DNA of 55,518 bases, the filler included, from Circinaria calcarea (lineage: Eukaryota), in assembly GCA_051942165.1 (NCBI GenBank). It is 5 parts of 5 records of this genome, joined end to end, with 100 filler letters (N's around TTAATTAATTAA, not from the genome) between each part and the next. Parts side by side here need not be neighbours in the genome. Positions count along the whole stretch, not along the records: positions 33,392 to 44,410 come from JAVECS010000727.1; 4 more parts are not named here. One strand, given 5' to 3'. The notes under the pieces are model-generated. The model had not been told where the DNA came from. It searched no databases and saw only the letters and a program-made list of their open reading frames with translations. Position numbers and translations under genes: made by a program. This document shows positions 1,950 to 50,900 of the stretch, one piece after another (the stretch's first letter is position 1; each line of letters begins with the position of its first letter).

Positions 1950-4900
1950 ATGGCTGACACAAACGATCTTGAATTGAACCGCAATAAGGAATTGACCGAG
2001 GAAGCTACCGTACTGGCTACTACGAGAGACCCGGAAGGACCACCCGATTTTGTACACATGGAAGACGCTGACAACATCCACCCTAATGCTGGACATGACA
2101 AAGACAAAGCGAGTCTCTCTGAGACAGCAACGCTTGAACCCGACACGACCTTGGATGTGTCAGAGGACAGGCCAAATAGCGACATCGTTGGCCACAAGTC
2201 CACCGGTCAAGCTGTAACTGAGGATGGCGAAGCCGCTGAACCACCACTCTCAAATGAGGAACAGCCCGGCGTGAGCGCTGAGGACGCACGGAACGACGAA
2301 GATAAACAAAAGCCGCCCTCGACCCTTGAGGAGCAAGATGGAGGGGCCGAATCCGACATATCAGTAGAAGAAGAACCCTCATCACAAGAGTCAGAAGACG
2401 ACTTCAGGAATCGCCGGGAGGTTTATGACGCCGTCAGGCGTGGGGACCTAGAAATACTAAAAACAACACTAGCGAAAATTAGTGATATCAACAGGATGTG
2501 GCGCAAAGGGCAGAATCCGCTACATTTTGCGTGTCGGCAAAGCGAGCGTACTGATGTGATAAAGATTCTGCTGGCCAAAGGTGTGGATGTTAAGTCAGAA
2601 ACTAAGGATAGGTATTTAAACACTGCTTTGCACCTGGCCATGCAACACGGGGAATTATCGACAGTGAGGCTCCTATTAGAAAAAAATGCCAATATCGAAG
2701 CTACCGACTCTAATGGCGAGACACCAATTTTTGACGCCGTATATTGGGATCATCCCAAGATTGTAGAGCTACTGCTGAATAAAGGGGCCAAAGTCAATTC
2801 TCGGTCAACTGAGGGACTAATACCTCTGAGCGCTGCGATTCTACGACTAGATCATCCCGATTCGATGGTCGACTTACTCTTGGACCGATGTGCTGACGTC
2901 AACCTAGCGGACGAAGATGGATGGACGCCTTTACACTATGCGGCACTGTGGAACGAGGAAGGCGCAGTCAAAGCAATACTATCACAGAAGGTTAACCTTC
3001 AGGCCACAAATAAAGAAAAGGAGACTGCTCTACATGTTGCAGTAAGGAACAGTTCCGATGATCTCAAAATCATAAAGCACCTTGTCAACGCTGCCAAAAC
3101 TACTGCCAATCTCGAGGAGTACGTAAGCACGAAGAATGACGATATGGAGACGCCTCTACACGTTGCATACAGGTCAAATGCCCCACACGATGTCATTCAG
3201 CTTCTCCTAGAAAACCATTCAGATCCGACAATTAAAAACAGCAGAGGGAAATCGGTTATTGGTGAGGCAATCAGGGATGGAAATATTTCAATCATCAAGC
3301 TACTTCTAACGAAGTGTGATAAAGTTATTGGCGGGGAAACAGACGATACTCGAGCAGTAGCGTCCGGTTGGCTCGTGAACAAAGAGAATAGGACCAACGA
3401 ATTATATGAGGCGGTAAAGGGGTCTTCAGACCGGGAATCATTTGCTCGGGCTTTATTAGATTTGGATATAGAGTTCGACGTAGAAAAAGCGAAGGATGAA
3501 GGTCGGACGATACTCCATCATCTTGTCGAAAAGGGCAGTAAAGATCTTATTACGAGATTATTGGATATCCATGGCGCAGACACAGAGACAAAGACCAAAG
3601 AGAGTAACCTAACAGCACTTCTCCTCGCTATCAAATGCGGCCGGAAAGATACCACCGCTATCATGGAACTCTTGCTTGAAAAGGGCGCTGATATAGAGGC
3701 AAAGACGAAAGAGAGTAACCTAACAGCGCTTCTTCTCGCTATCAAATGCGGCCGGAAGGATGCCACAGCTATCATGGAACTCTTGCTTGAAAAGGGCGCT
3801 GATATAGAGGCAAAAACGCGAGAAGAAGAAACAGCGTTGCATTTGGCAGTGAATTACGCCGATCAAGCTGACCAGAATGCTCCAGAGTTTTCTGAAGAAA
3901 ACGCCAATCAAGCATCTAAGACACAGTCGGGATCAAAAGCAAAGCCCAAACCAACGAAACCTCTAGGGGAGGCGGAGCGGGTCAGGAAGGACGGCCCGAC
4001 AGACGGAGGGTTTCGTGCCGAATCCAAGCGAGATACGGACACGGCTCAAGCTGAGGAGTTAATCGAATTACTGCTGAAGTATGGCGCGGATATCGGGGCA
4101 AAAGTAAATCTCCCTTAGAACTTTATCAATAACAGTCGTGTCTAATCTCAGTGAAGAATAAGGAAGGTTATACGGCTTTAACGTTAGCCCAGGAACTCAA
4201 AACTCGAACAACCTCTAAGAAGAAATTAAATTCGAGTGCTAAAGAGAATCTTTATACTCACAAATGCGTCGATAAACTTCGTAAACCCCCGGTGATCACT
4301 CAGCTACCCCCGTCCACGAAGCCCGTCTCAGCACCACGAGATCTTTCCGGAGTCGAGAGAGAGGTTTGCGAGTCTTTTGACGCCTTCATAATGGATTTTT
4401 ATGTCCAGACGCATTCGAAGGAAGAGCAGAAAAATCGTGAGGAATCGAAGGAGAAGCCGAAAGAAATTCTCAACGATTCGAGATCAAATCAGAAAGGCGA
4501 TCTCGATGCCTCGATGGAAACTCAGAAGATAAATCCTAAGAAATCAAAAGCGAGTCAAGAAAGCCAAGATGGTGAATCGAAAGGAACTACCCACAACATG
4601 CTGCAGAGAATAAGAAGCGTATACGATTTGATCAAAGATGGTCCAGATGCTATCATGAATGAGGCAAAGGACGAAATGGTTAAAACGCTGAAATCCAACC
4701 TACAAGACCACCGACATCTTGTGAGGTGGATCCACATTCCAGCCAATAACGTAAGTGATTATCGTTGAAACCAATATCGGCTTAAAGAAAGCTAATAGTG
4801 ATCCTTAGATTGTCTGGATTAAGGCAAGTTCAAATACAATTACATGGATACGAACATCAATCTAATAATCATGGTATTGTACTACAGGATTTAGTGCAAC

Positions 4901-7761
4901 GTATCTGCTATGACGAGAGCCAGACAAAAGATTATCACAAGTGCCTTCTTAATGCCATCAGCAATAAGAGTTACGAGCATATTGGAGCAAAGCCCCATTC
5001 TCGATATATGAAGCCGTCCTTTCTGGTTGTCCCGCTCCTCTTGTCTAAAAGTGATTAAATATTCCTTACTCTAACAGCTTCCAGGTGTACGATGAGCGAC
5101 CAGAAGATTATGTCAGTTCCGCTACAGAGAATTCAAGCTTGAAGTCAAAACGTGCCAAGACAACGTCATCCAAGCAAGCTATGACTACAATATATGTACG
5201 AGCACTAGAGAGTGGATGAGACGTAAACTAGTTGCTAACTAGACTATAATAGATACCGTATCTCAATTTCGAATCTCATTCTTCTCGAAGACAGATACAA
5301 GAGGAAATTGCACCATCAGCAAACCCCCCAGACTCCTTGAACCTGACCTCGGAAGAAGATTCTGATCGTACCAAAAAATGTAGATCCTTGGTTAGACACT
5401 ACCTCAATCACTCAAGAGGCAAATTGCACATCCATCGTACTTTAGACCAATTCTACTACGACTCTATCGATGACACCACGGAGCGTGACAGAACTCAGGT
5501 GATGTATCGCTATTCTGACACATTAACCAAACCTCCCCCAGACACAATCCCTGAGCAAAATCCAGCCCAGAAAGATGCAGTGGCGCCTGCACACAACTTG
5601 GAAAGGAAAGGAGACAAAAGTGAGGCCGATCCGAGTATAGGAGTACAAGCCCCCAGAGAAGCTAAAGCATCTGAGAACTCTGAGAAGCGTTTGCCTCCTG
5701 GATACTCGGAAAACCCTGTGATATTTACAGTAGATCAACTTTGGCTATGGATTATAGATGAAAGTATGTTCGTTTTTTTCAACTGAAATGTCTCCGAGCA
5801 TTTCTCCTTTTCTTACTTTACGCGCAAATTGCTTGCTCTTGGTGACCCTGTAACTCTCCCACTCTACTAGTCTATGAAGGTCTCCTTGAGCACCAGTGAA
5901 AGTTTTTGTGGCAGTCTAACCTTTTAATAGAAACAATCATCTCTAGCTTCCCAGAGCGATGGGCCGAGGAAAAGCTCCGGGATCTTAAGGTCCTTGAAAG
6001 CATCCAGATATATCTTCGAGAGAAAGGTCGGCGCAGAGTTGGATCAGTCCAAGAAATGGCGGCGCTGATCATGAGCATGTGCCTTCGATTTGTGGATAAG
6101 TGCCAACTTAGACGCCCCAATGGCAATTTAGACGAGAGATTTTTCGAAGCTTTTGCTTCCTCAGTGAGACGAGTTGTACGGCTTGCTTCTTGAGATCCGG
6201 AATCGGTTTGTGATGCTAATATAATATAGGCTCACAGGGAGGCAGAGTTGTTCAAAACCTTTAAGAAAGGGGAGGCAGAGTCGTTCAAAACCTTTAAGAA
6301 AGGGGAGGTAGAGTCGTTCAAAACCTTTAAGCAAGGAGAGGAACAGAATAAAACGAGACCAAAGGAGGAAAAGGAGGAGATAAGGCAAGAAGGTCCATTA
6401 AAGAAGAGTCCCACGCGCGTGACAAAAAAGTTGGTTAATTTTAGTGCCGAGGTTAAAATAAAGTTAACCAACTTTTTTGTCATGCGAGTGAGTCCCAAGC
6501 GAGACAGCCCCTTGAGCTCTCCACAAGGGCTTAACATTTTGGATGAGATCGAGATGCTTGAGGAGCTCAGGGATATTCGTGACGAGCTAAATATACTACA
6601 CAAGGTCTTGCGTGACCAGAAATCCGTTGTCGACAGAGCTTTCAGCAAAACCGGGCTTAACCTAAACCAAGAGGCCCGTAGTTATTATCTGGAGAGAACA
6701 GGTCTCGCTAGCCGAATCGCAGAGGTTGCAAAAATGGAAGAAGATGCCAGAGTAACATACGAGCAGGTAAGATATACCTTTCGTGCTGGCTTGTGTCCTT
6801 TGCTGACGAGCGAAGCTTAATCACCTTTTGGACCTCAAACAAAAAGGTGCAAATATAAAGGAAGCAGCAGCAGCAGTCGAACAAGGCCGGATCGCAGCCG
6901 GGTTAGCAAGAGAGGCTGCGCATCAGAGCCGTCTCATCTTTGTCTTTACGACGGTGACAGTATTCTTCGTGTGTGCCCACCCAAAGCAGTCCGAACCTGA
7001 TCCGTTTACTGACCCTCGACTGTATCTTAATAGCTACCTTTATCTTTTCTTACGTCCTTGTTCGCATTGAACATTGACATCTTTCCCAAGATATCAGGAG
7101 CCGAGCCAGGCAATGATGAATACGAGTCCCGATGGATATTTCCCATGATATGTAAGACCTCCATCCGAGCCCGTATATATATTGGGGCTCGGAACGCTTT
7201 CTAATCATTTTCTTGCCCACTCTAGTCTTGGTCTCTCTCGGTATCATGCTCATCATCGCCATCATCGCAACGATCTATGTCAATCAAGATCAGACTCAGA
7301 CCACCTTCTATACTAAGTATATTGGACCTACCTTATGCTTATATGGACTACAGCACGTCGATACTATAAATCCGGGGCCGGGAAATAAAGGACTCATTGC
7401 AGCCACCACTGAAGCCGCCCAAGATACCCAAAAGAAGTCTCTCGCAACGGGAAAGCAGACACAGATCGATTCCGGCATCACCCACGAGGAGACGGAAGCT
7501 AAAACTAAGACTCCCAGCGCTCCCACTACCACGGTTGGTCCTCATAAGCCAAAAATTGAGCTCAATACTGTCCCAACGGAACGAAGTTCGGACAATAGAA
7601 CGCCCGGTACATCGACCAATTCAGGGTCCCATGATACTCAACCTTACAAGCCTGAACTGGGAGAGCATCCCGAAAGCAGTGCTGAAGCATTCACTTTCTG
7701 GTCTAGGTGGTTCAAACATACTCGGTCAAATCGAAGGAGAAACGGATCCGATAAGGTTTGA
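1950..7761 (+). CDS. Ankyrin-repeat protein with C-terminal fungal CorA-like/transmembrane domain (multi-exon)
   Basis: Many ANK repeats (TALHLA, TPLHYAA, GADIEAK). Spliced downstream exons give the motifs typical of this fungal family: WIHIPANN-IVWIK-DL, IPYLNFE, HRTLDQFYY..RD..QV, VDQLWLWII, ISSFPERW, EIEMLEELRDIRDELNIL and the TM segment IFVFTTVTVFF-LPLSFLTSLFAL. Intron 4104-4156 restores GADIGAK|NKEGYTAL. 3' exon boundaries are approximate. Confidence 0.8.
3591..3818 (+). repeat. Near-identical 111-bp (37-aa) tandem duplication of an ankyrin repeat
   Basis: KTKESNLTALLLAIKCGRKD(T/A)TAIMELLLEKGADIEA occurs twice with period 111 nt and few nucleotide differences. Confidence 0.9.
6239..6337 (+). 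repeat. 3 x 33-bp in-frame coding tandem repeat
   Basis: GAGG(C/T)AGAGT(T/C)GTTCAAAACCTTTAAG(A/C)AAGG(G/A) x3, encoding E(A/V)E(L/S)FKTFK(K/Q)G. Confidence 0.9.
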
Positions 7762-8592
7762 TATACTCTGAGGATGAAGGGTGCTCATGATACTCGAGGT
7801 CAAAATGAATTCCCTAACAAGTTTGGGTTCCACGAGTCTTTTGGCTTAGATTTCGGTAGGAACTAGCGGAGCGATCTTATGCTCCTAATCTTGTAAATTA
7901 TTTAATCATATCTTTTATACGGCTAATTCATACTTTTCAAAAATTATTCCTCCCCACGACGATGTGCACACAATAGTCGGAGAGCCTTAATCATACATGT
8001 AAAACCTGCCTACTTCGTAACCCTGATTATTATTCCCTTATCCTACCCATGTTAGAGCAGTAGTACCTTAGCGTTAATATAGCTAGGGGGCGGCATGATA
8101 AAATTATAATATCTAAGTTTGAGATCAGCTGATTAATGATTGATTGGGTAACCAAGTCATGCGAAGGAAGGAGCAGGAGGTTAGCTGGCTAACCAAGGCC
8201 TTTGGGCCTTAAAGCCTGCCTTGGGGCATAGATAGAATTAATCGATTCTTTTCACCTCATTAGATGCTGTGCACCTCCCGTGACAAACCATCAGCGCATA
8301 CCAGCTATTACATTTTTTCTTTAAAAAAATTCATCAGCCAGCAGATACAGATAGGCTTGATGTCCAATATTAATGAACAGCTGACTTGTGCACGGAAATA
8401 GTTTGATCTAATTCTACTTGGGTATTGCCTATACCTACAGGAGATGACGGCGTTGTAGCAGTGTGTGACCATACATCTTGGTATATTCAGGAGTTCTCAA
8501 TGTATTTTGAATCTGTAGAGTAGTGTACCTTCCTCTACTACATGAAGCTCATTCGTTGCCATTACGCCAACGCCTTACCATAATACCACCAT

Positions 8593-9672
8593 CTAATCCG
8601 CCAACCTGAATGCATGTTAGCAACTCCTCTTGTTGGGTGGGGGCCAAGTTCTTACCTGTAGCTAACTAGGGTATCAACTTTGTGATTACTGGTGCTGAAG
8701 CTCCGAAGCTGCACTTTCTCCCCATCCTTGATCTCCTTCGAATCGCTGTCGCCCCATTCAAGTGGCACGTCCGAATCTGCATCAGCGTATACTAACACGT
8801 TGAATGTACAATTGCCATCCAATTGTGGGAGGAACGTAACCGATGCGGTGATCTGGCGGAAGATGGACTGTATCTCATCTTGGATCTCCTTTTCTGTTTT
8901 TTCCACCGGAGGTTCTGCATCACTAAAACCTGTTTTTCAACACGAGCAATCCAGATATGTTTGCAGATAAGAGCGACTAACTCTGGAGCAGCGTTCTCCT
9001 TGTCTGCTGTCTTTGTTGATGCGGACTTCTTGCTAGTTTTGCTGAACAATTGCACCTACGGCCGACTGTTAGATGGTTGACACAAAAGCAGCTCGAGAAA
9101 TAGCTACATCGAACTGCCATCTTTCCATAGGTTCACCGGTCTCTTTGCTTGTGATGACGACTACTAGCTTTGATATCTTACCACCAACCATCCATTTGTT
9201 TAACTGGGACATGATCTTTCTAATGTATGCTCTGACTTGATCATCCGAAGAAACTGTAAATTCTCAATAACTGGCCTTAAAAGGGGATAGGTCAAGACGC
9301 ACCCAGCATATTAAGGCCATACTTTTTGACACTTTCGGAATCAGTAGATCTCTTTTCTACCGACGGGTTGACCTACGCCGTAAAGTCTTCAGCTGGGTAT
9401 ACGCCTCTCTGAAAGCTGCACCATCATCAACATTCTGCAGTTGTCGGTTCATTGAAACAACCTACAGAATGGTATTTATCGAATACTCAAACTGTGCTAT
9501 GTTATCTCGAATCCAGTCTAAATAGGCGTGGCTAGAAGTCTTCTTACGAACTCAGCAACAAGCTTGGATGAGCCTAAGAAGTTGTAAGAAGTTGTAGATT
9601 CATAGCTTGCATAGAATTTCCACCTTTGAGTGATAGCTTGTGCACTTTGGATTTTTCCTTTTCTATTGACAT
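8593..9672 (-). CDS. MAD2: Spindle assembly checkpoint HORMA protein Mad2 (many small exons)
   Basis: Spliced: MSIEKEKSKVHKLSLKG|SSKLVAEF|FEYSINTIL|FQRGVYPAEDFTA|VKKYGLNML...QSIFRQITASVTFLP...FNVLVYADADSDVPLEWGDSD...VQLRSFSTSNHKVDTLVSYR|LAD*. Confidence 0.95.
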
Positions 9673-33391: not shown

Positions 33392-33635
33392 GGTGAAAAG
33401 CAAGGGCGGGCTGGCTGAATGAAAAATTCGCGAAATGAGGCTTGAGTATCCAAAGGCGGGGGGGGTTCATAAAAGGAGTACTTAGCGTTTAGTTAGAAGC
33501 CGTTGACCTGTTTTTCTAGCCGGGATTTCCGAGGCATTGATTTTTTTTGCTGGAGAAATTTGGGTGGAAATGTTGGAAATTAGGATTATTTTTTTTAAAT
33601 TTTTTTTTGGGAGCAAAACGACATGCGTAAACGAA

Positions 33636-33816
33636 GGGCCCACGCGGGTGACACGTTAAAACGCGACGCCCACCGTATTTACTTGCCTAAAGTATAAGCC
33701 CCAAATTTGTGAGGACCCCTTCTAACACTAGGGCTCCTCGGGCGTAAATTAGTGGGTGCGCCTACGGTCTGGGTAAATTTTGCTGTCGCATTTTTTCTGT
33801 CACCCGTGTGGGGGCC
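33636..33816. repeat. Degenerate ~180-bp foldback / inverted repeat (MITE relic?)
   Basis: CCCACGCGGGTGACA...AAAACGCGAC...GAGGACCCCT mirrors the reverse complement of AGGGCTCCTC...GTCGCATTTT...TGTCACCCGTGTGGG. Centre is at ~33725. Confidence 0.5.
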
Positions 33817-34332
33817 ATATGGTATAAGAACTTTCGCGAATAGCTAAATAGGTTGTCTTTAGAGGGGGATTTATTAGTCAATTAATAGGGCCAAATAGCA
33901 AGTGAGGTTGGTGCTAATCCTAGGTGTAGCAAGGGGACATATCAGGAAGATACCAGTTACCAGGGTAAAAAAGTGTGTGTATCCGTGCAATTTTATGCAT
34001 GGACAGGGGGAGGGTATTTTCAGCAAATTCGACATTATATATTCACATCCGCGGCTATGCATCAGTGAATAAACTTCTTTTTTGAGATGAGAGAGGGTAG
34101 TTCTAGTTTCTAGGTCACAAGACTCGGGAGGCGGGGGGAGAGGAGGGAAAAGCGAGAGCGGAGAGCTTGCAGGTTGGAATAAGAAGAGAATCTAACAGCC
34201 CTCGGTATCATTAATACCGAATTAATTCTGCCTCTGTCTCTGAAATCTGGACACCCCCGCACAAACTTGTTCTTCCCCCCCACCCCCGGCTATGAGGGTA
34301 TCAAGGAGGAGGTAGGGTAGGGTAGGTCAGTT

Positions 34333-35015
34333 TCAAATAGGCTCCTTAACACCATGGCATATGAGCCCGTCCCCGTAGAGCCCTACCTCGGCTTTGGCCA
34401 GGCAATCCAAGATACCGGTAACATCGTTTGGGCTATCCACGCAGTCGATGGAGCTCGGGATCCCCCACCAGAAATAGAACTTGTCGCCATCCTTGAACAG
34501 GTAAGTGGCATTGTCCGCCTGCCCGAGGATAGGGATCGGGTTGGTGAATTGGATTTCATAACCATAGTCATTGAGCTCTTTTGCGTCCGGGACGACATCG
34601 AGCAGATCAGGATCGTTACACCAGCCGAACGGGATCAGGCTCTCCGGCACGACTTTGTAGAATGCGCGGCCGTTGTAGTACTGGATTTGGAAGGGATCCT
34701 ATTATCAGATATAGACGTTATTTTTATGAATATATATTGTTTGAGATAAGGGTACCATGGGACTTTGGCTCGTCGAAGCGGTAGTTAAGGCTTTCCCGTG
34801 AAACGGTGTTTTCTAAGGTATGTGGTTAGATACACCTAGAAGCTGTAGCTGTGAGGGTAGTAAAAATGACTAACCCGGGTCGCGGCCATAGTCGTAGCTC
34901 GAGGGTACTGGAATAGGGTAGCTAGGACGTTTCGAAATTTAGGTATCACAGGCTTGTATGTCGACCGGAAAGCGAAGGATCGAAGATATCGACCAAGGAT
35001 GGGTGAATTCTTCAT
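34333..35015 (-). CDS. Hypothetical 187-aa protein, Arg-rich N-terminus, possible SUKH/US22-like domain
   Basis: Three in-frame exons (35015-34875, 34812-34756, 34698-34333) with GT..AG introns. Core LIPFGWCNDP..NPIPILGQADNATYLFKDGDKFYFWWG..DSPNDVTGILDCL. The fold assignment is inference. Confidence 0.65.
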
Positions 35016-35463
35016 TCAGAAATGAAGGACCAGCTTCTTATTTAAGGCAGTAGTGTAGAAAACAATGTAGAGTTGTCAGGTTATGGCCTAAGGGCCTGAG
35101 GTTACGAGGTCAAAGGAAGGGGAAGAGGGATAGCAGCGTTTCATAGCCTCGGTGCGATGATTATGTATTTAGGGTTTGCTATTTGAGCAGGCTCGGCAGA
35201 GTTTCATTCATGATACTTTGAATTGCTGGCGCCTCCAATGAATTGATCGCAAAGAATTCGACTCGATCAGATGATCTATATTCACTCTATACAATGCCTC
35301 GATATAGCCTTAGACCTAATATTTCAGTTCATAGCATCCCCCCCAAATATTCCTGTAACAATTAGAGAACTGCTTAGGGTTACAATCTCTATTTATCTAG
35401 CCTAATAACGCAGGTGCCTCTGAATCCCCATCAATCCTCCGTCTACTACCATAACCTAAGACC

Positions 35464-36578
35464 ATGGCATCATCGAGCCTTGCTGGACGCATCCTTAAAC
35501 CGGCGCACCTCCTCTTCGACATCCACCAAGGGCTATCGTTTACCAAAGCTGATGTGAGTTATACCCTGGAACCTGGGCCAAAAAATATCGCGCCGATGGT
35601 TTTCGTAACTTTACAGATACTAACATAGAGGAACAACTAGATAGCAGCTTTCTTGAAGACCACGCCCGGAATTCTAAAGGCTAACGGACTGCAAGGGGAT
35701 GAGCTCAAGTCACTACAGGATTGCGTTGGTATATTACGTACGAACATGTAAACATCCGTACCAATCCCAGCGACTATCATTGATCAAAGCTGAAGTTCCA
35801 CTAGCGAAAACGAAAAGGCAATAGTTCCGAACCTTGATAAACCACCTATGGCAAGTATCAAAGGGGTTCAAGTGCCCCTTTACTCTACTTCAGACATGCT
35901 AGCTCACATTCTTTCTACCACTGGGATTCCCGAGAAAAGGCAGGATCCGAGCGAACAAGCGACCATGGAAAACTATTATGTCCCCTACCTCGCTATGTTC
36001 CATCAGTGGAACAATATTATCTCACCAAATCCAGAGTATCAGCCATACATGGCCTCTATCCTGGTCTTTGGCACCGATGGGTTATCGCCGCCTTTGATCC
36101 TAGGGTCCTCAAACTACAGGCGAAAAGATCAAAAGATTTTGCTCATAGAGCGGGCACGAGCTGATCTGAAAAATGCAGGCCTGATTCCAAAACAACAAGG
36201 AAAGAATTACGGAAACTGCGCCGAGACGACCCAATGGCTGATCCTGAAGTAGGAATCTAAATGCTGAATGTAGCCATTTCGCCTTAAGCTCTCTGCTAAC
36301 AATATCTGCTTAGGAAACTTGGGCTTTCCAAGGCAGGAGTGAGTCGAGGAATTGCATTGGAGAAAACGAGAGAGGACTCCGGTATGATGAAGTGGGACCC
36401 CAAAAGCGTTGCACAGCGGTTGCGCCATCCCTGCCTTGACTGTGGACAACTGGCCTGCCAAGTAGGGTTCAAAGAGAAGGATCTCGAAAGTCATTTCGGA
36501 ATTGAACAAACGGCGCGAAAACTAAGTCCTGAATGGAAACCCCTGAAAAGGCAGGATATGGGGCCGTTTCAAACGTAG
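35464..36578 (+). CDS. Putative Zn-dependent nucleotide/nucleic-acid deaminase-fold protein (~301 aa)
   Basis: Four phase-consistent exons (35464-35553, 35641-35747, 35805-36248, 36314-36578). Motifs YGNCAET and LRHPCLDC match the (H/C)xE...PCxxC deaminase signature. Confidence 0.65.
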
Positions 36579-36622
36579 AGGTGGGTATTTTGAAGTAGAT
36601 TGTATTATAGCAAGGAAATGGG

Positions 36623-37956
36623 TTAGATGTTTCTCAACAGTGGCAGGCACTCTTTAAGCAGATAGTAGCGAAAATGATATCCCTTTAGGCCCTGTGGGGG
36701 ATTCTTGCGATCCAAGTCGAATGTCTTGGTGCGTAGGGTTGCTCTACGGATTGGATCAACACCCTGAAGCCCGCCAATTGTCGGTGGTCGTTTGCAGGTA
36801 ACCAACCATTTGAAAATCTTCGTGGCGATGTTTTTTGTCTTTGATCTGGTTGAGCCTATCGGCGTAAAGCTCACTGAGTTTCACCGGTAACTTCACTACC
36901 TCGTCGAGTAATTAATCCTCGTACCGGCCTTGTCTTCAAGAATGTCGAGCATGAGCCGTGTGTAGAGAATCATTCCTTGAATATATCAGTACATCAGTGG
37001 ACAGTCCATCGCGTGGTCTCCACATACCTTCGACATTTCCCTCAGGCTCTCCACAACTCGTGGCATTTGTCGGGACAGCGCTTTGGATTTTCGGAGCCGG
37101 TCTTCAATGAACAGCCGTATATCTTCTCTCGATTTGTCTATGACAGAGCTCAGCTGAAGATGGATGTAGAGAGTATCTTTAGCAAGGTCTTCGATGCTTT
37201 CCCAACTTGCAGTTTCTGGGACGTTTTTAATTCTTCGAGCCACTCTTTCAAGACTTCAGGATCGGTGCCTGTGCATTCATCGAGGGCATCAACAACCAGA
37301 AAGGCTGGCTGGACCATAGCCAGGACATCTCGTTTGGCTTCTTTAAGGCATTTAGGGGTCAGATCTTCGTCCTGAACCCTTTGGCGGACAATCTCAAAGA
37401 ACTTCGCTCTCAGATTAGAATCTGCTCGTGGGATCTGGTTGAGCAACTGATGTAAAATGGTATGATAGAACTTCCTTAGTGATCGTAGGTCTTTTGTATC
37501 TGTACTTTTGGAATCGAAGAAAAAACACATGGGAATGAGGTTCTCTTGTTCGAGATGCTCGCAAAGGTACTACTAGATTTAGTCATGAGGTCTAGGATTT
37601 TGGGTTGTCAATTACTGACGTGCGCAATGAAGCTTTTACCCGATTCGGCCCTCCCCAAAATCCAGGGCAAGTTATTCTGCAAATTCCAACGCTGAAATTG
37701 CCATTCGCGAGTAATCCATTGACATGTACCGGCGGTGAATTTGCTGTGTCGTTCGTCTCTGATAGGTTCGAAGTCACAAGGCTCAAAGGATCCGAGAAGC
37801 TCTTGGTTGCTCGGTTCTGTCAAATTCATAATCAGGTTTTATGACAGTTTCTCTAGGCGTGGGCACTTTACCCTTGCTGATAGTCATACTTATTGCGGTC
37901 GGGGCGTTGATTTGAATGGAGTTAATTGCCTGGTTGTTCATTGCCTTTCTGGCCAT
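36623..37956 (-). pseudogene. Decayed NACHT-type NLR with N-terminal candidate amyloid signalling motif; no C-terminal repeat domain
   Basis: Spliced MARKAMNNQAINSIQINAPTAI...|..ELLGSF..FTAGTCQWI..FQRW..WILGRAESGKS (Walker A) |YLCEHL..CFFFD..ILHQLL..FLVVDALDEC (Walker B). Frameshifted segments follow: DIRLFIEDRL, GMILYTRLML, LPVKLSELYADRL, ATKIFKWLVTCKRP. At least 3-4 frameshifts. Confidence 0.8.
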
Positions 37957-38331
37957 ACGAGCCGTCTCAGGACAGTACGCTTTGACCAAAGTGTTGTACT
38001 GTCCGCTCCAATCAGTACAGGGGTGCAGCGGGCACCAAGCTGGGTATCCAAAGCTTTAAATATATAAGCCCGGATCTTAGTTGGTGCACCTGACATTAAT
38101 GGGTACGCCCGGCGAGTTGTAGTATGCCCGGCGAGTTCCAAGGTATTTGTATCCCCAGGGTGTGAGATAGATATTAGCCAATAAAGGATGGCTATTTAAC
38201 TAGGGCAACCAATCAGCAGAGTTGATCCATTGGAGACCCCTCATAATACGGACTTAGTTTGACGGCTTGCATCCATTATCCACAGTGATGAACTCTCTTT
38301 GAAACTAGGGACCTCAGTTCGGGTGACGGTT

Positions 38332-38480
38332 TCACATTCTAAAGTTCTGCCTGCATAGATGACGAACGGGCTTCTCTGCCTAATATTGGTGGGCTGAACG
38401 AGTAAAAGCTATTTTTTTGACAGTGAGACCTAGTCTCACATTCTGGAGTTCTGCCTGCATGGATGACGAACAGGCTTCCC
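38332..38480 (+). repeat. 45-bp direct repeat (38332-38376 and 38436-38480)
   Basis: TCACATTCT(AA/GG)AGTTCTGCCTGCAT(A/G)GATGACGAAC(G/A)GGCTTC(T/C)C. All five differences are transitions. Confidence 0.85.
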
Positions 38481-38490
38481 ATACATTTAC

Positions 38491-38909
38491 CTGTCCGTTC
38501 TTAGGCTGGCACTAATTACTAGGCTGGCACGCTTACAGGGCATGCCGGGTAAATGTCCACGCGGAAGCTAAACGCCTTTGCGCCCGGAGAAGGCTTTTGC
38601 GCCCGGAGGCTCTTACAGAAAAATAATGTGTTACAGAGAGGGCGCTACGTCTTCAATAAGCTGCACGGTATAATCGGAACAAATATATGAATAAGTGCTA
38701 TTGAAATATTATAGCAATGCTATGAAATTATGTATGATATATATGTGCTGTGTAACATGTACAGAACAATATTCGGGGGATGGCTGAGCTGTTTTTAGGC
38801 TGTTTCGGTAAAGCCAGTTTTCACCGGGCGTAAAGAGCCTCCCGCCGCAGCCTCTGCGTGGATACTTACGTGCCAGCCTAGTTATTAGTGACAGCCTAAG
38901 AACGGACAG
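38491..38909. mobile_element. 419-bp MITE (Tc1/mariner-pogo-like), 41-bp TIRs
   Basis: TIR CTGTCCGTTCTTAGGCTG(G/T)CACTAAT(T/A)ACTAGGCTGGCACG at both ends (2 mismatches). TA flanks the right end. Confidence 0.85.
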
Positions 38910-39050
38910 TATATGTATACTGTCCCATTATCCTAAGTCATTCCGATATTCTTATTTCTGGCGGTGGTCTCACGCGACTTAGATTATATCGAACACCAAG
39001 GTAATTTGAGTATATATGAGGGAGAATTTCGTTAACACCTTGCAGTCGCC

Positions 39051-39575
39051 ATGTCCGCTCAAGCAGCCAATATCTCCAGCGAGGCTGCTTATGCGACGAA
39101 ATTGCTCGACAAAGCGGTTTCCTATATCGGAGAAGTTCGCAAGACCTACAAAAATAATCTCAACGACATCAGAAGTCTTCTCCAGAGTGTCAAATACCAA
39201 GACGCCTTACAGACGCCCACTGTTGGTCTTGCGCTTTCCACAGTCAAGGACGTTTTGGAGAGGCTGGTACAAGTTTCGAAATCCCCAAGGGATTTAAATC
39301 ATCAACTATCCAAAATAATGGACGAACTCAATCAGGCAACAGTCAATCTGAGATCTCAACTCCCAGGCGATATCTCCACTGCTTCTGATAACAATGCAAA
39401 GAGTGGAATCCAGACTAACGCTGCCATTGGAGGAAATTCTCCGGAGGGGCGCGTGGGTACTACGGCATCAAGGAATACGGCTACGAACAGTATGCAAACG
39501 AATGCCCCCGTGTATGGAAATCCCGAAGCTATCGCCGAATTCACCAATCTCTGGGCTCCGGGGAGGGGAAATTAG
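39051..39575 (+). CDS. Short HeLo-like/SesA-type helical protein with C-terminal two-repeat candidate prion-forming domain (174 aa)
   Basis: Amphipathic helical N-domain paralogous to the 40417 gene (LL..A.S.I..VRK, DAL.T..V, DV..RLV, R.L.HQL, IM..L..A). C-terminal repeats STASDNNAKSGIQTNAAIGG (39375-39434) and TTASRNTATNSMQTNAPVYG (39459-39518), then FTNLW. Confidence 0.8.
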   Translation: MSAQAANISSEAAYATKLLDKAVSYIGEVRKTYKNNLNDIRSLLQSVKYQDALQTPTVGLALSTVKDVLERLVQVSKSPRDLNHQLSKIMDELNQATVNLRSQLPGDISTASDNNAKSGIQTNAAIGGNSPEGRVGTTASRNTATNSMQTNAPVYGNPEAIAEFTNLWAPGRGN

Positions 39576-40086
39576 GAAACAACTGTACGCCAGAGTAACA
39601 CCGCCCTGACGAGGGGAGGGACATGAAGAATACTCCTTATTGTATATATTGCTGCTTGGCTTCTTCCGGAATTAATATAGCTTCCTCTAAGATGCATTGA
39701 TATTATGTAGTTGCGAAGAGATCTAAGGGTGTGTATTAATCGTCAATACTGCAAAACCCGTCCAGCTCTCTACCCCATTGGTTTGTGGATTTCGGTCCCC
39801 TACCTGCCGCGAGACTGGTTTGCATGATTGCAGTCTCCAAATACTAAATATTACACGATTTCCCGGTCTTTGACGCTGGGCGACATATCCTAGAATATAA
39901 AGAGCGTGCCGGTCTCTGATTTAATAATATTGTGTCGCTGTGCTTCTTTGAATTAAGCATGAGAGGTTACTCTCTCGCACATTTGGAAGATTATGGAAAG
40001 ATATAGAAAGCTTATATAACGCGCAGCGGGGTAAACATATTCCGGGCGCGTATTCCATCCTAAGCTTTGCCAACGAAAACTCAACG

Positions 40087-40307
40087 TCTCGGCACACCAT
40101 AACTCCGCCCCACCTAATGTCTACGCAACACCACGACTTTTTTCCACTACACCACATACAACTTCTATGCAAAATGCCGGGGAAATGTTGAGTCACCTCT
40201 CTTGTTCTTGGAATCATAAATTCAATCACGAATTTCTTATACCTGCTAAATAATTGTATCTGGTGTTGCGTAGAAATTAGGTGGGGCGGAGTTTTGGTGT
40301 GCCGAGA
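40087..40307. mobile_element. 221-bp MITE with 47-bp TIRs
   Basis: TCTCGGCACACCA(T/A)AACTCCGCCCCACCTAAT(G/T)TCTACGCAACACCA at 40087 and as reverse complement ending 40307 (2 mismatches). Confidence 0.85.
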
Positions 40308-40416
40308 ATTCTGTCAACCGCGTGACTCCGCATCCTACTTCCAAGGTTGGAAGATCCGTTCAGGGTTTATGGTCAGCTCGCGGGAATTTAATTTAATCAA
40401 GAAATTTGCTTACAGC

Positions 40417-41337
40417 ATGATCTAGTTGGGTCTCGAAATTATTGGAGCCGCTTCGGCTGCGTCAGCCCTGCTGGAAACAGCAATCAGCATTATCAAACGG
40501 GTTCGCAAGGCACATGAACAGCAGAAAAACCTTGCCAAGGTGTTAAGAAGTCATTATGATGAACTGATAAGCACCAGGAAGACTATTCAGATTGTTGAGG
40601 ACGAGGACGCCTTGCGGACGGCAGCTGTTGTTTCCGAGCTAGTCAAGCTTGAAGATGTTGCAGCAAGGCTCGTCGATTGTCTTGAAAAGATGGTTCCAGG
40701 GACCAAAGGCTCCATGCGTCAACTCGCCCATCAACTTGTGCAAGGATCAAGAGATGAAAACGCGCTCGCTGATATAATGAACAAACTTAGCCGAGCAAAT
40801 TCGAGTCTTAGCCTGCATATCCAGGTTGCTAATGTCGGCCTGATGCGAACTATCAGAGACAATTTTGTTGCAAATGCGGAAGTCGTTAATCGGATTGACC
40901 TTGTCCTTCAGCAAGTTTTCGGCGAAGGGAGAGGGCTGAAGCTAGCCGAGTTGCTCAGATACCGGTCTGCCCGAGGTATGTCTGATTGTCCGTACAGTTT
41001 GAAAAACTGACATTGAATAGATGACGGCATGGTACCTCTAAGCGATGGCGATATCGCATGGCTTACTGATGAAGTGGCTTTCCTTACTGGTGATGCAGAC
41101 ACCGCCTCTAAACCTGCAGCGAACGGTCTTACGTCGCGGATCGTTATTGATAACTCAACAGAAGAGCAAGCTTTGCAGATCAACGGGCCGATTGGGGAGA
41201 AGGGTTGGTGGGAGGTTAGTCACCTCGAGATTAGGAGAAACAAGGCCATCGGTAGGAGTATACAGGTCAATCATAGCATGTCGATGGATGCATTTGAGCG
41301 TTTATTGGCCGTTCGTGCTGCAGATTCACGAGGATAA
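40417..41337 (+). CDS. SesA/HeLo-like (MLKL-like 4-helix) effector with C-terminal two-repeat motif; in-frame TAG at codon 3 (possible pseudogene)
   Basis: ATG ATC TAG then LGLEIIGAASAASALLETAISII (hydrophobic N-terminal helix typical of HeLo-like/SesA domains). Intron 40976-41020. Repeats RIVIDNSTEEQALQINGPIG (41137-41196) and LEIRRNKAIGRSIQVNHSM (41224-41280). Confidence 0.75.
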
Positions 41338-42373
41338 ATTATAAGCGTATCAGCTTTCGAACTAGAAGCCTAGAATTGATAGGGCAGAGCTGGCGCTCTA
41401 ATTATAATAATACTAAAGAGTTGATTTTCTGTCCAATATATTAGTTATTCGAGCGTTAATCACTGATTAGTCCCAGATCTGGAGGCTTCTGTTATTAGCC
41501 TGGCAGGTTTGCAGGACTGCGAGAAATGAGATGGAATAGTAGTAGAGGGAAAGTTGTATCTGTAATCAAATAGGTCCATCACACTCACTCAAATTGAAGC
41601 GAGACTTCGGAACGTGTGCAAGATGTTACACTTGCAATTCGCGTTAATCAACTCTCTTTAGCCAGGTCAAGGAAACACCCAGGGATATCAACCTTAATGG
41701 AAGCAAGTATACTGTGCATCAAATTATTTCCTCGGGTACCCGTCCACGCCGTCGCCAAAGGCATGGTCAACACTGGCTTCTGAAGTGATGCCACGGTGGA
41801 TCGGGCCCGGCAAAACCTAGCTGTGAATGTAGAAGCCATGTCTCCAAGATTTACAACAGGTAGTACCCATGACATCAAAGTTTTGCATAGGACCTGAATA
41901 GGGGTCCATGTTGCCACGGCTCCGCGGAGCAATACACAAGTATATCCGGCATCGTGCAAGTCGCTACCACAGCTGGAAGATACTCCATTCTCTTCAAAAT
42001 AGTAAACGTAGAGACTATTCTGCCACGCGCAGGCTTACCAATGAAGTCAGGGCGCCCTTTGCAACAGCATATGCGACAGTTTGTAGAAAATATTTAAAGT
42101 GCGATTCCGGTTGCGGCGAAGACCTAAATAATCTGGCACTCCAAGCCCGCATATTTGAAGACATCATTTGCTAAATAGAGGGAATGGAAGAAGGTTTCCG
42201 GAAAGTGCAAGTCGGATCGTGATGGCAGAAACCCAGCTTCAGGAAATTAGCCACCTAAGACCTCGCGGTACACTTTCCAATTGCCAAGGAAGCAGATTCT
42301 GGCGAAGTAGCCCCTCTCGCCAGTTAGAAGCCTCAGTCGCCATACTTTTCCTAGATACTGTTATTTTTTTGCA

Positions 42374-43557
42374 TTAAGCCACATCTACCCCTTCCAATCC
42401 CGCTAGTACCTCCTCACCTACTCCACCCTTTTCTAAAATCAACCCCAATATCTTCCCTACTAGACCCCTCTTCATACCTCCCCTTGGGGGCCTCCAGACC
42501 CCTTCTTCATTTCCCTCGCGTTGACCTACCTCTTTCTCACCAGCCTGACTTCCCCCAGTTGCCGTGTTGAGAGCATCCGGGATGCCTGGCGTGGTCAGAC
42601 GGGATGGCGGATCGATGGTACGGATGGAGAGGAGTTGTAGCGAATCAGAGTTGGGTGTAGATACAGATGATGTTGTGATGGAAACAGCGAGCACGGCGTC
42701 GGCAACGGCAAGTTCTTCGCGTGTAGGATCGAAAAGGATGTTCGGTCCAATGGCCATAACGAGAAGGGTGATTGGTGGGCGGCTTTGGTAGGTTGACTTG
42801 GTAGTTGGCTTAGTATTAATGGCCTTGTTGAAGCGTGGGTAGAGTGGTATCGATGCCTCCCAGTCATCGTCAAAAAGTGGATCCTCGTCCAATTCTGACT
42901 TGAGGGCTGGAAGACGAGTGGATAGAAGGGCCAAATGGGTAGTAAGGGAAAGGAGGGGGATAGGGTATGAGAGAGGTGGCGAGAGAAGCAGAATCTTTGA
43001 ACAAAGATTAGCATTATCTCGAACAAGTCAGCTGCCATAGATACATCAATATAAAGCTTCCAGTGCCAGCGGCGGTTGATCCACAATTTATCCACCAAGT
43101 CCCCCGTCGACAGTAAAGCTTCATTCAGCATAGCTGCCAGAAACACTGGCAGTGCATCATCCTCTCTAAATCCTGGAATATCAATTGTCATCTCTACCCA
43201 GCCATTTTCCCCCGAGCCTTTTCTTCCTGGCGTGACTCCCTCCTCTTCCTCCACATCACCCATTTCTTCATCTTGCGCTCCAGTGCCAATGTGTATCTTC
43301 AAGTTATCACCGTTCAACCCACGCAAAGGAGTTTTCTCCACTTCGGCTTTTACACCTACAATGGCTTCTGTCCCGTCGGCGAAGCATATTCGTGCGCTAC
43401 CATTAGTTCCAGGTAGGATCTCTGTTTCCGCGACGAGCGGTCGAAATTGGGAAGGATGGCGGGAATCAGGCCGTATGGGTGGTGTGAAGGAGAGAGAGGA
43501 GTGGAGATAGGAGAGCTCAGCGGGTGAAAGCAGGAGCTGCGTCGTTGAAGGTGCCAT
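42374..43557 (-). CDS. RRP42: Exosome complex RNase PH-like subunit Rrp42
   Basis: LSPAELSYL..PIRPDSR..QFRPLVAETEILPGTNGSARI..EAIVGVKAEV, WKLYID|ILLLSPP, FDDDWE, NILFDPTREELAVA. Intron 42995-43044. Confidence 0.9.
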
Positions 43558-43981
43558 AGAAAGATGAACGGCAGGGAAGGATTAGCCGACAAGAGGGTGG
43601 CTTGAAAGGCTTGCACAATATATTAATCATTTTTATCCACCGCCAAAATCCAGATCTATAACCCGGTTCTTCTCTATTCTCTGCATTATTTCTTACATTT
43701 AACATAGCCTCAAGGTTCTATCAAGGTATCCCATCAGGTCTCCCCCTTTTTCACTTCTTAATCAGAGTCGGAAAAGTGGATTTTGTCAGGAAGAAGATTT
43801 TCACACTATCATCGGCTTCTTGGCTTCTTGGCTTAGGATTCAAGACAAACATTCAGATCCGTCTGGCCTTATAGGCGTTATACATTCAGACCGTGAGTAG
43901 AAGGCAGTACATATCCCTTTTTGTCATCTCCGACTTTGTGCTCGTTGTGATTCATGTTTGAACGTGCAACTTGTCCACCCT

Positions 43982-44410
43982 TTACACAGTAATCTCCGCC
44001 CTTGCCCTACCTACCTCGTCGCTCACCCTGTCCATCTGCTTTACCTGCTCGGCCGCCTTACCCGTACCGACCTCTTCCTCTCCGCCTCCATACCTCTCTT
44101 CCGCACCCGCAATGCACTGCATGTTCGCTCCGAGCTTGTTCATCGTCTCCATCCACTCCTCGTACGGATCGCTATCAAACACAATCCCGCCACCCGCTTG
44201 CAAATGCGCCACACCGTCCTTTACCAGCATAGTCCTCAAGGCAATACATGTATCCATTGCGCCCTCTTCCAGTTTCACCTCACCCTTCTCATCGAAGCTG
44301 ACACTGTCATAGCCAAAGTAGCCTACCGCGCCGGCATAAACCCCTCGCTTTTCACCCTCGAGTTCGGCGATTAATTCCATAGCACGGACCTTGGGAGCAC
44401 CGCTTACGGT
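43982..44410 (-). CDS. TRP2: Anthranilate synthase component I, C-terminal fragment (5' part beyond contig end)
   Basis: [59 protein letters not shown]. Confidence 0.92.
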
Positions 44411-47953: not shown

Positions 47954-50900
47954 ATGAACGTTTCCACCTCCTTTTTACCCTCCCAGGCCTCGGCCGACCC
48001 CCGTTCCACCCCATGGGTACACCCCCGGCATCTCGAAGACTTCCAAGAAACTCTAAAAAGCATTCCGGCACCCCATCTACTCCCTCCGGAGTCCGGCGAA
48101 CAACACCACGCCAAGGACGAAGCGGAACAAGGTCTTCGAGACTTCAATTTAGCCAGGGTATGTCCTAGTCTCCGGCGGCGGACAGCCAAACGTCTTCTTC
48201 GTAATGCGGTGTCGTGGTCATTGAAAAACCCACGAAAGACTGGAGGAAGTTAGCAGAGGCAGACAGAAAGAGGAGACACTACTGTCCGTCAAACCGGTTG
48301 TAAGTATTCAATCACAGTTCGTAAATGGGTGGGGCGGAGCACTTGGACCCTGAAAGTCACCCACGATAAACATAACCCACCCACCCTGCCCAGACCCGTT
48401 CCTAGATCCTATGTACAAGCACAGGAGACCTGGTTTTGCCGAAGAAAAGGCTATGGCGACCACTCACCGGGCGGCGGGGGTGTCGTATGCGAAGTCTTCC
48501 GCCATACTGAGGGAGAGCGGACTCGGTATGGACATTCTATAACCTCATTAGCAAGCCGAATAAGAAAGGACAGACGAAAATGGAGCAAGCAAAGGAGTTA
48601 CAAGCTCGATTGGAAGCCTCAGGCCTCATGTCATGCCGCTGATCAAGACCATATGGAGTGACGACGGCAGCAGAGAACTCGGTCGAGTTATGGAACAAAT
48701 CTTTTTTATTTCATCCATTCAAATAACCCTTAGCCAGACGATTTGTTTGTAGGTTTATGATACAAACGGATGCCACATTCAATACTAACCGCCTCCGCTT
48801 GCTTCTTTCCACATGCGTCGGTATTAGCAATACTGGCATGACCTTTCCGGTTGCTTTTTGCTACATATCCTCGGAATCGTCGGAGGCATTCACCCACATC
48901 TTCCATTGTATGGATGTCCTAGTATGGCACGATAAGGTCGTCCCGGGGTCACGTGTGGTGGTATCCGATCAAGCCAAGGGCTTAATCGCCAGCTTGGCGA
49001 AGCGTAAAACTGCCAGACGGTTAGCGGAAGTCAATGCAACGAAAGCGGGATTAGGAAAGGAACAAGTAGCAGCGGTAGGCGATGCTGCTGCCGCGCAATT
49101 GGACGATCTGGAAGCAGTCATAGCGGTTACGGAATTAGAGGAAAAGGAGGGGGTTCATCCGCGGAATAAACCCGAAGGGGAGGAGGCGGAGGAGGCGGAG
49201 GACGACGAGGACATCGAGGACATCGAGGACATCGATGCTGGATGGTTAGAAGACGATATTATCCTGCAATTCTGTCAGTGGCATATTGCGGAAGGTATAA
49301 TAGCTCACTTTACCAAATCTACTTACAGACAGGAGGCACGGATCGAAATCAAAAGCCTTATATGGCGTTGGATTCAATCCCCTACCCAGAAAGAGCTTCG
49401 ACAGAACTGAGGATTCTCCTCGACGGTCTCAGACCGACAGAACAGCGGTATCTTTTAGCGAATTATACCCTAAAAGAACGTCAGTTTGTCACTGCATACT
49501 TGAAGACTTACCCTAATCTTGGGTGCTTTAGCACGCAAAGAAACGAGTCAATGCATGCCTCCTTAGATGTTGCAGGCAATCTTCATGACGGCCAGGAACT
49601 AGTGGATGCGTGTATAAAGTTAGCAAAGACTTGCGACGTTTTAGAAAAGAGATTACTTACAATAGAGAATAAGTCTCGAATTGGAGCTTCCAGGGAGCTC
49701 GACCGCGAAGCCTTCGCGGCTATGCACCTCTGGGTGATCCAGTATGCCCTGACAATCATGTGAAAGGAATGGGAACAGGCGAAGAAGTGGGTAGAGGAAG
49801 GGGGTATAGGGCCGGAAGAGCCAGGCTGCAATAGAAATTGCAGCCTGCCAATCCAATTCGCACTTCCTTGTCGGCATTGGATGTTCAAATGCTGTGTAGA
49901 AGGGACTCCTTTACCCTTATCTCTTGTCCACCCTCGCTGGCTGCTCGACAGGCCCCCTACGGATGAAGGGTGGGTAATGTCTTGGAGGCCAGAGGCTCCA
50001 GACATTGCCCGAGAAACACGTCAGCGAGAGGAAGCATTCGACGAAGGAAGAGGAGACATCTTCCGAGACCAGGGCAGGAATTTGGTCACCAGACAGGCAT
50101 TGAAGATAATAGAGGAGCAGGAAGAACTCACCGGGCCAGAAAGGGAACGCTTTGCTGCAGACATAAGCAGGACAACTGATAGAGTAGTCAGCTATTATCA
50201 GTAGAAAGAAAAGAAGAAGGAAAACTTACCTGTAGGGCTTCTAGAAGTGCTCCCAAATAGGAAAGATCAGCTCGTTCAGAGCAGGATGAAACGAGCTTTG
50301 ACTGGGCGGGAAATGACGGACAAAAGAGAGCAAGACAGGCTTGCTCAATTGACAGCGAAAGAGCAAAAGGAGGTACAGGAAGTTCGGGTGGCGGCACTCG
50401 AGGAAGAGCAGCGAGCAAAAGAGCAAGAAGCTGCTGATATCAACGCAAGAAGGGTGGAAGAAGACGAGGACAGCGTCAACATCCGCCACACCTAGGGCAG
50501 AGAGCAGTTCTTTTTCTCGAGTCTCAGTATGCTTCCGATCAGGTCAAGTCAGATACGACGACCCAGCCCAAGCATTTCTCTTTCGCCATTTCGGACTCTT
50601 CCCCCCGAAACTATCGAATCCATCAACCTTATTACCCCGGCCTTGACTTCCTTTGTCCCAGTCGAGGATTATCCAAGTTATCCTTCCTCTTCTTCCTCCT
50701 CTTCTTCCTCCTCTTCTTCCTCCTCTTCTTCCTCCATCGAGGAGCTCGATCCACCACATCTTCCACCTGCTAGGAGTAGCGGTAGGGTGGCGAAGCCATC
50801 CAGAAAGGAAAACTCGCAGCCGTGGCGGCAAATGCTGGCGGGGAGAAGAGACAGGTCGCGGCGGCGGCGAAGGATGTCAGGAAGAAGGAGCGTGCTTCCG

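Follow-up and report, generated by a model that had tools for sequence, protein, structure and literature searches.

The window, i.e., the whole stretch of DNA analysed here (55,518 nucleotides from Circinaria calcarea), consists of five contigs joined by N spacers. On contig C727 (window 33392-44410) it carries a deaminase-like gene of four predicted exons, transcribed head-to-head with a small partner gene on the opposite strand. The features of the locus, in window coordinates, are the following.

34035..36625: two-gene unit of 2.6 kb, 83% identical to C1187:869-3459, with unalignable flanks
34333..34698 (-): main exon of the partner, 121 codons and a stop; acidic product (pI 4.05), candidate immunity protein
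34699..34758 (-): ATG micro-exon of the partner (34758-34756) and its 57-nt intron, giving 122 aa, like P0028, the database model of the paralogue
34759..35463: spacer of 705 bp between the two start codons, presumed to act as a shared bidirectional promoter
35464..35553 (+): deaminase exon 1, aa 1-30
35641..35747 (+): deaminase exon 2, aa 31-65, with the least certain splice site as its donor
35805..36248 (+): deaminase exon 3, aa 66-213, with the family-conserved N-terminal part, predicted strands 1-2, helical insert, and GNCAE (secondary structure assigned by eye)
36211..36225 (+): GNCAE, residues 202-206; C204 is the first predicted Zn ligand and E206 the predicted catalytic Glu
36249..36313 (+): deaminase intron 3, phase 2, its position kept in distant homologues
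36314..36578 (+): deaminase exon 4, aa 214-301, with predicted strand 3, insert, PCLDC helix, and basic tail
36429..36443 (+): PCLDC, residues 253-257, with predicted Zn ligands C254 and C257

When spliced, the four deaminase exons amount to 906 nt that encode 301 aa and a stop, with no internal stops, and GNCAE and PCLDC, which are encoded on separate exons, are brought into one protein. The three introns (87, 57, and 65 nt) are all of the GT-AG type, with a CTAAC branch site in introns 1 and 3 and only TTGAT in intron 2. For introns 1 and 2, 141 splice combinations leave the frame open; three of them pass a consensus filter, differing only at intron 2, and the 301-aa variant agrees, junction for junction, with the gene model that the database gives for the C1187 paralogue. 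The four-exon gene proposed in the original prediction has thus been upheld. In fact, the closest database protein, P0001 (307 aa, labelled as a protein of the lichen fungus Circinaria calcarea), is encoded exon for exon on C1187 in the same genome (G000), and 260 of the 301 residues of the window protein (86%) are identical to it. The C727 and C1187 copies are recent, since their noncoding divergence is just 9-22%; in the spacer it is 14% over 34891-35463. Comparison of both copies shows purifying selection on the deaminase frame, significant in exons 2 (dN/dS = 0.10, p 0.046) and 3 (0.24, p 4e-5), with the same, non-significant trend in exons 1 (0.37, p 0.21) and 4 (0.46, p 0.06). Intron 3, on its part, must be old, because 9 of the 14 other homologues listed terminate exactly 8 residues past CAE, at the position of this intron. 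No dual coding has been found in the window deaminase, the other frames of exon 3 containing 9 and 3 stops. Pfam scans of the 301-aa protein found no secretion or delivery module, and no signal peptide is evident on P0001 by a crude hydropathy check. The motifs alone are weak evidence (2 GxCAE and 11 PCxxC matches occur in the six frames of the whole window), and it is their conservation that counts.

Family searches yielded 11 representatives and then 10 profile matches. The named homologues are ascomycetes (Lambiella, Cyphellophora, Trichocladium, and Gaeumannomyces), mostly 20-35% identical, and the family is patchy and fast-evolving, with pseudogenes. Conservation of the two motifs had been set beforehand as a test, and it was found: 29 of the 30 aligned rows (partly redundant) retain CAE, the one without it being an exon-4 fragment, GxCAE is present in 27 of the 30, and a CxxC-type motif occurs in all 16 rows with CAE and sufficient reach, 13 of them with an exact PCxxC. 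The spacing from CAE to CxxC is 33-64 aa in the family and 49 in the window protein, and this stretch aligns to YwqJ. The clade has been studied by HHalign comparison of 16 full family rows with sets fetched from actinobacterial genomes, namely 19 PF14431 (YwqJ) sequences selected for diversity, DddA-like rows (9 of 11 loci), XOO_2897 (10 of 20), PF00383 (18 of 18), and BURPS668 (1), together with three OTT_1508-like members of G000; MafB19, Pput2613, and DYW lay outside this comparison. The family matched the YwqJ profile at 93.5% (E 2.3e-7), a value reached by 0 of 30 column shuffles, compared with 4.2% for PF00383, 0.6% for DddA-like, 0.4% for XOO_2897, 0.9% for OTT_1508 (3 sequences), and 0.5% for BURPS668 (1 sequence). 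Therefore, both the toxin-clade signature and the dissimilarity to the housekeeping Tad/Cdd/Fcy enzymes that had been claimed for this gene are supported. All 15 three-sequence subsamples of YwqJ (range 13-92%) outscored the OTT_1508, BURPS668, and other deaminase groups; an earlier YwqJ set of 10 mostly near-identical sequences had given just 14%. An assignment to the OTT_1508-like clade (PF14441) was rejected on this score and on the absence of HxE and of GxxK before CxxC.

By sequence, the fungal protein is best described as YwqJ-like rather than as a formal PF14431 member. This is because the profile match is restricted to 74 columns (helix 2 through helix 3), P0001 is not among the 6 of 16 fungal members that exceed 1,600 shuffles with a YwqJ HMM, and the insert, although present in the fungal family, lacks the conserved His column. 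This His is found in 19 of 19 bacterial YwqJ rows and is listed for the YwqJ insert in the available part of Iyer et al. (PMC3239186, Table 1). No PF14431 match at E up to 10 was obtained for P0001 and its homologues, nor in G000, and the Atlas lead for the deaminase, PF14431 at 0.83, is weak (11% of members). Neither deaminase nor partner has matches over threshold in Pfam, NCBIfam, PHROGs, or PDB sequences, and the sub-threshold library matches are only to deaminase models (PF00383, E 0.1; SNAD4, 0.04; cytidine deaminase, 0.004). Pattern scans found no deaminase relatives among 66 viral-contig candidates, 196 prokaryote-genome candidates, plasmids, or 151 genomes of one actinobacterial order.

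The frame of the partner gene is also under purifying selection with respect to the C1187 paralogue (dN/dS = 0.31, p 2.5e-4); in an alternative model, an additional upstream exon starting at ATG 34889 would lengthen the product to 145 aa. The pI of the deaminase is 9.15, as opposed to the 4.05 of the partner. For the latter, the Atlas pointed to SMI1_KNR4/SUKH_6 clusters at 0.91, both feature sharing and recognition being low. By eye, the partner resembles the C-terminal half of SUKH-3, which the available part of PMC3239186 gives as the usual immunity neighbour of YwqJ, and which was also present beside YwqJ deaminases in the fetched actinobacterial loci. The HHalign match to SUKH-3 (1.7%, E 0.028) is not significant, but lies above 15 of 15 shuffles, and true SUKH families compared with each other in the same test reach just 0.1-5% (rows: SUKH-3, 9 of 11, with 18 in the SUKH test; SUKH-4, 8 of 10; SMI1, 22 of 30). 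Sporadic fungal SUKH-4 proteins fused to F-box domains have been reported (Zhang et al., 2011, PMC3113570, in the text available). A partner-profile match in 1 of 101 actinobacterial-order genomes (E 0.29) corresponded to an AMP-binding enzyme and was discarded.

Deaminase and partner have relocated together as a 2.6-kb unit between unrelated flanks. This block is the single blastn match between C727 and C1187, and it is flanked by a NACHT-type fragment at C727 and by a kinase gene (by motifs) at C1187. No terminal inverted repeats bound the unit, no RIP signature was found in the contig, and there is no RIP-like CpA bias between the copies. G000, a fragmented assembly, contains at least four family deaminase loci and at least seven partner loci. 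A divergent partner lies beside four of the four deaminases (C727, C1187, C3921, and C3924, the partner of the last one being reached by joining C3924 to C5113 through a 141-bp identical overlap). These loci represent only two independent lineages, C3921 and C3924 forming a second one with ~35% protein identity to the first and only 50-60 bp of alignable DNA. The deaminases of this second lineage are pseudogenes, with frameshifts, a lost PCxxC cysteine, and in one case also an in-frame stop; the partners beside them are open as far as the contig ends. Three of the seven partner copies have no deaminase match beside them and can be likened to orphan immunity genes; the neighbour they face is a HET-domain gene in one case and a short-chain dehydrogenase in two, so that partners may do other jobs as well. 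Chance adjacency would be ~2e-4 per locus (7 partner copies in 31.5 Mb), and the pairing holds in both old lineages. No partner match was found beside the OTT_1508 deaminases on 3 of 3 G000 contigs.

Other observations have been made around these copies. The C1187 unit is bordered on each side by a short direct repeat (L005:852-868 and 3439-3455) whose 8-bp core is identical; spotted post hoc and not seen at the window copy, it might be a target duplication or microhomology. In the window, a ~170-bp MITE-like repeat with 15-bp inverted ends (33639-33812) lies 220 bp left of the unit, and 10 other G000 places appear among the matches listed for it. The orphan partner of C371 (L013, 5279-5620, -) is head-to-head with a 665-codon HET-domain ORF (6678-8672, +; PF06985), an arrangement hinting that partners could guard other cell-death effectors. 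The contigs on which the partner is divergent to the short-chain dehydrogenase (L012, C2142; and L173, C1448) are near-duplicates, and the C1448 partner seems 5'-damaged. The OTT_1508-like deaminases of G000 are three (L278-L280, on C1885, C927, and C1373), one of the matches containing a stop.

With respect to the surroundings, the proposed "defence island" has not been confirmed: the window is a join of five contigs, a MULE transposase and an ankyrin gene sit on contigs other than C727, and on the 11 kb of C727 only a NACHT-type fragment adjoins the deaminase, the remaining genes being housekeeping or without assignment. The MULE transposase domain is at window 48727-49410 (+). The NACHT-type (NPHP3_N) fragment, in several frames, occupies 36986-37838 (-), 400 bp downstream of the deaminase and convergent with it. 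Two small helical-looking ORFs (39036-39575 and 40426-41337, both +) gave no Pfam matches and have in common a C-terminal "NAPVYG/INGPIG" type repeat; we take them to resemble the N-terminal domains of fungal NLR-like proteins. A 681-bp sequence from a Streptomyces assembly (L020) is 80% identical to the fungal LepA/Guf1-like GTPase of the window, whose other bacterial matches are ~45-50% identical; by this identity, L020 is likely to be a fungal contamination of that assembly.

A different form of linkage appears in metagenomes. A scan on the deaminase alone retained four loci (L016-L019) from 110 pattern matches, with unspliced deaminase frames and a GC content of 34-39%, of the arbuscular-mycorrhizal type. 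Their deaminases are clearly homologous to the lichen family (HHalign 98%, E 1.6e-13) and 38-74% identical to one another, i.e., they are related and not clones. In the four loci, a long same-strand ORF in the -1 frame runs across the entire deaminase and terminates beyond its stop, in a partner-like domain of ~150 aa. This frame contains no stops over 204-259 deaminase codons, the third frame containing 16-30; three synonymous-codon models predict 7-22, and zero was reached in 1 of 60,000 simulations. Nuclear genes of eukaryotes seldom show a dual-coding overlap of ~200 codons, and gene models are confused by it, 2 of the 41 database partner proteins being chimeras that include pieces of the deaminase frame. 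Of the 41 proteins with the C-terminal domain, 21 include part of the overlapped frame, often just its last 20-50 positions. Named members of this C-terminal domain family come from Rhizophagus, Funneliformis, and Glomus (16 of 45 matches, obtained from a mixed alignment and therefore no evidence for kinship of the two partner groups), and P0034, from Funneliformis, is almost identical to L019 in sequence. Lichen and Glomeromycota-type partners have in common a Tyr-Gly, three predicted strands with aromatic-x-Trp, and a closing helix. Their HHalign match is weak (16%, E 0.0017) and above 40 of 40 shuffles, and in HMM tests run both ways, every shuffle was exceeded by 5 of 15 one way and by 0 of 9 the other way; the Glomeromycota-type domain is probably related to the lichen partner. 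As for the choice of frame, the 5' ends were read by eye: L017 seems to retain a 5' intron (L017:30-130), the removal of which would join the upstream exon to the partner frame, and the first ATG leads into the deaminase frame in L016 and L019 and into neither frame in L018. Alternative acceptors or small indels may act as frame selectors at these loci.

Our preferred explanation, to which we give a reasonable though by no means overwhelming probability, is that the unit encodes a deaminase toxin and its cognate immunity protein, in a selfish or non-self-killing cassette. It draws on the two genes with their motifs, on the affinity to the YwqJ-like clade, on the selection acting on each frame, and on the recurrent linkage of the pair, its relocation as a unit, and the decay of deaminase copies, the divergent partner being the main evidence. 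Tight linkage recurs in all four G000 loci and in all four metagenome loci, where the partner is weakly related. A poison-antidote cassette would be expected to leave such traces: units that relocate jointly, dead toxins whose partners are still open, partners without a toxin, and an overlap that recombination cannot separate. Any obligate partner would fit the linkage and the presumed shared promoter. The small protein could thus assist an editing or mutator enzyme, as its cofactor or as the subunit that targets it, rather than inhibit the deaminase, the more so as the partner's matches to SUKH are below significance. This is improbable, however, in view of the partners that stay open by dead deaminases, the three orphans, the strong opposite charge of the two proteins, and a closest clade made up of toxins with immunity neighbours (PMC3239186, Table 1, as available). 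Somewhat harder to sustain is the original prediction of a free-standing mutator or editor, i.e., a stand-alone defence deaminase with a merely hitch-hiking neighbour. The partner gene, overlooked in that prediction, argues against it, as do the low probability of chance adjacency combined with pairing in both old lineages, the purifying selection on the partner frame, and the lack of RIP-like CpA bias. Such roles have nonetheless been proposed for fungal OTT_1508 and mushroom YwqJ deaminases (PMC3239186, available text), a NACHT fragment adjoins the deaminase, and the pairing counts cover G000 and the metagenome loci, the Sordariomycete and Chaetothyriales homologues lying outside them. A Zn-binding protein of other fold, or an inactive deaminase-like domain, would agree with the lack of library matches over threshold and with a profile match that leans on short motifs; we consider it quite improbable, since the order and spacing of GxCAE, strand, and PCxxC fit YwqJ, the Glu is kept in all aligned rows but one, and the sub-threshold matches are exclusively to deaminase models. 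Finally, CxE plus PCxxC is also the pattern of cytidine deaminases, but a metabolic nucleoside or nucleobase deaminase is very improbable given the poor PF00383 score and a patchy, fast-evolving family with pseudogenes and low identities.

For the fold, activity, and substrate of the toxin, its binding and inhibition by the partner, and the biological role of a toxin-immunity pair, we infer the following scheme. Gene 1 would produce a cytoplasmic or nuclear Zn-dependent YwqJ-like deaminase in which C204, C254, and C257 bind Zn and E206 is catalytic; like Bacillus YwqJ, the enzyme would most likely turn C into U in single-stranded DNA, and it would kill or mutate cells. Gene 2, divergent from the shared spacer, would produce a small acidic protein that binds and blocks the basic deaminase. 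Nuclei, spores, or fused hyphae that receive deaminase without a matching partner would be damaged. Lacking a delivery domain and any evident signal peptide, the toxin would have to find its target within the cytoplasm of the producer, namely in sibling spores of the same ascus, in the nuclei of a heterokaryon, or in a hypha that is fusing. Provided that the toxin-immunity pair is real, its role might be that of a selfish spore-killer or of an addiction cassette; the killing of non-self once hyphae have fused has a slightly lower probability, and restraint of an antiviral or anti-transposon mutator is less likely still. The scenario in full is doubtful as a whole: a mobile fungal poison-antidote cassette, derived from a bacterial YwqJ-SUKH pair and either paired since before the ascomycete/Glomeromycota split or transferred, would kill antidote-less spores, nuclei, or fused hyphae by DNA deamination, both genes being locked together by a bidirectional promoter in the lichen and by an antidote frame over the whole toxin gene in arbuscular mycorrhizal fungi. 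Full-text searches of open-licence literature listed no description of a fungal deaminase-immunity pair or of the dual-frame overlap, which is limited evidence of novelty, and the supplement of PMC3239186 may list members of the family. With a linked candidate inhibitor, the idea of a conflict deaminase can be put directly to the test in yeast by means of two short cDNAs. If the unit is a poison-antidote pair, the few fungal drive and incompatibility systems known would be joined by a DNA-mutating killer, which could also explain nuclear competition in the multinucleate arbuscular mycorrhizal fungi, where the partner family has expanded. Base-editor developers, too, would take an interest in a compact deaminase of eukaryotic origin that comes with its own off-switch.

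Spok, Spk-1, and tdk1 are fungal poison-antidote drivers, and we know of no sequence relation between the deaminase cassette and these systems or wtf4. The wtf4 gene likewise combines tightly linked poison and antidote, is multi-copy, and has frequent pseudogenes, according to the available text of PMC5478261; it uses overlapping transcripts, whereas the overlap of the metagenome loci uses two different reading frames. Another example is that of the yeast killer plasmid toxins (K. lactis gamma-toxin and PaT), also eukaryotic nucleic-acid-attacking toxins against related strains; those are described as secreted tRNases on linear plasmids (PMC3482391, in part), and the fungal deaminase is chromosomal and apparently non-secreted. 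Also comparable are the YwqJ-like proteins of basidiomycetes and the fungal OTT_1508-like deaminases, likewise toxin-derived, the latter also with an N-terminal extra domain. In the available part of Iyer et al. (2011, PMC3239186) they were predicted as single genes for non-self conflict, with roles in non-self defence proposed, and no immunity partner is described there. In actinobacterial YwqJ plus SUKH-3 loci, there is likewise a GxCxE ... PCxxC with helical insert and a downstream immunity gene whose C-terminal half is like the fungal partner by eye; the fungal insert differs in having no His, and the fungal partner is shorter and its SUKH-3 match not significant. The YwqJ of B. subtilis is a ssDNA cytidine deaminase that requires its catalytic Glu and is neutralised by YwqK, other YwqJ-family members having shown no DNA activity in earlier screens (bioRxiv 10.64898/2026.09.29.755374, as far as available). 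This T7SSb LXG toxin-immunity pair likewise places a YwqJ-like Zn deaminase with catalytic Glu beside a small partner. Compared with it, the fungal protein lacks LXG, RHS, and any further delivery domain, shows no evident signal peptide, carries an extra ~120-aa N-terminal region, and has predicted C-C-C instead of H-C-C ligands, and the fungal genes are spliced and head-to-head. In layout and evolution, the fungal unit resembles a bacterial toxin-immunity pair, and would work like one.
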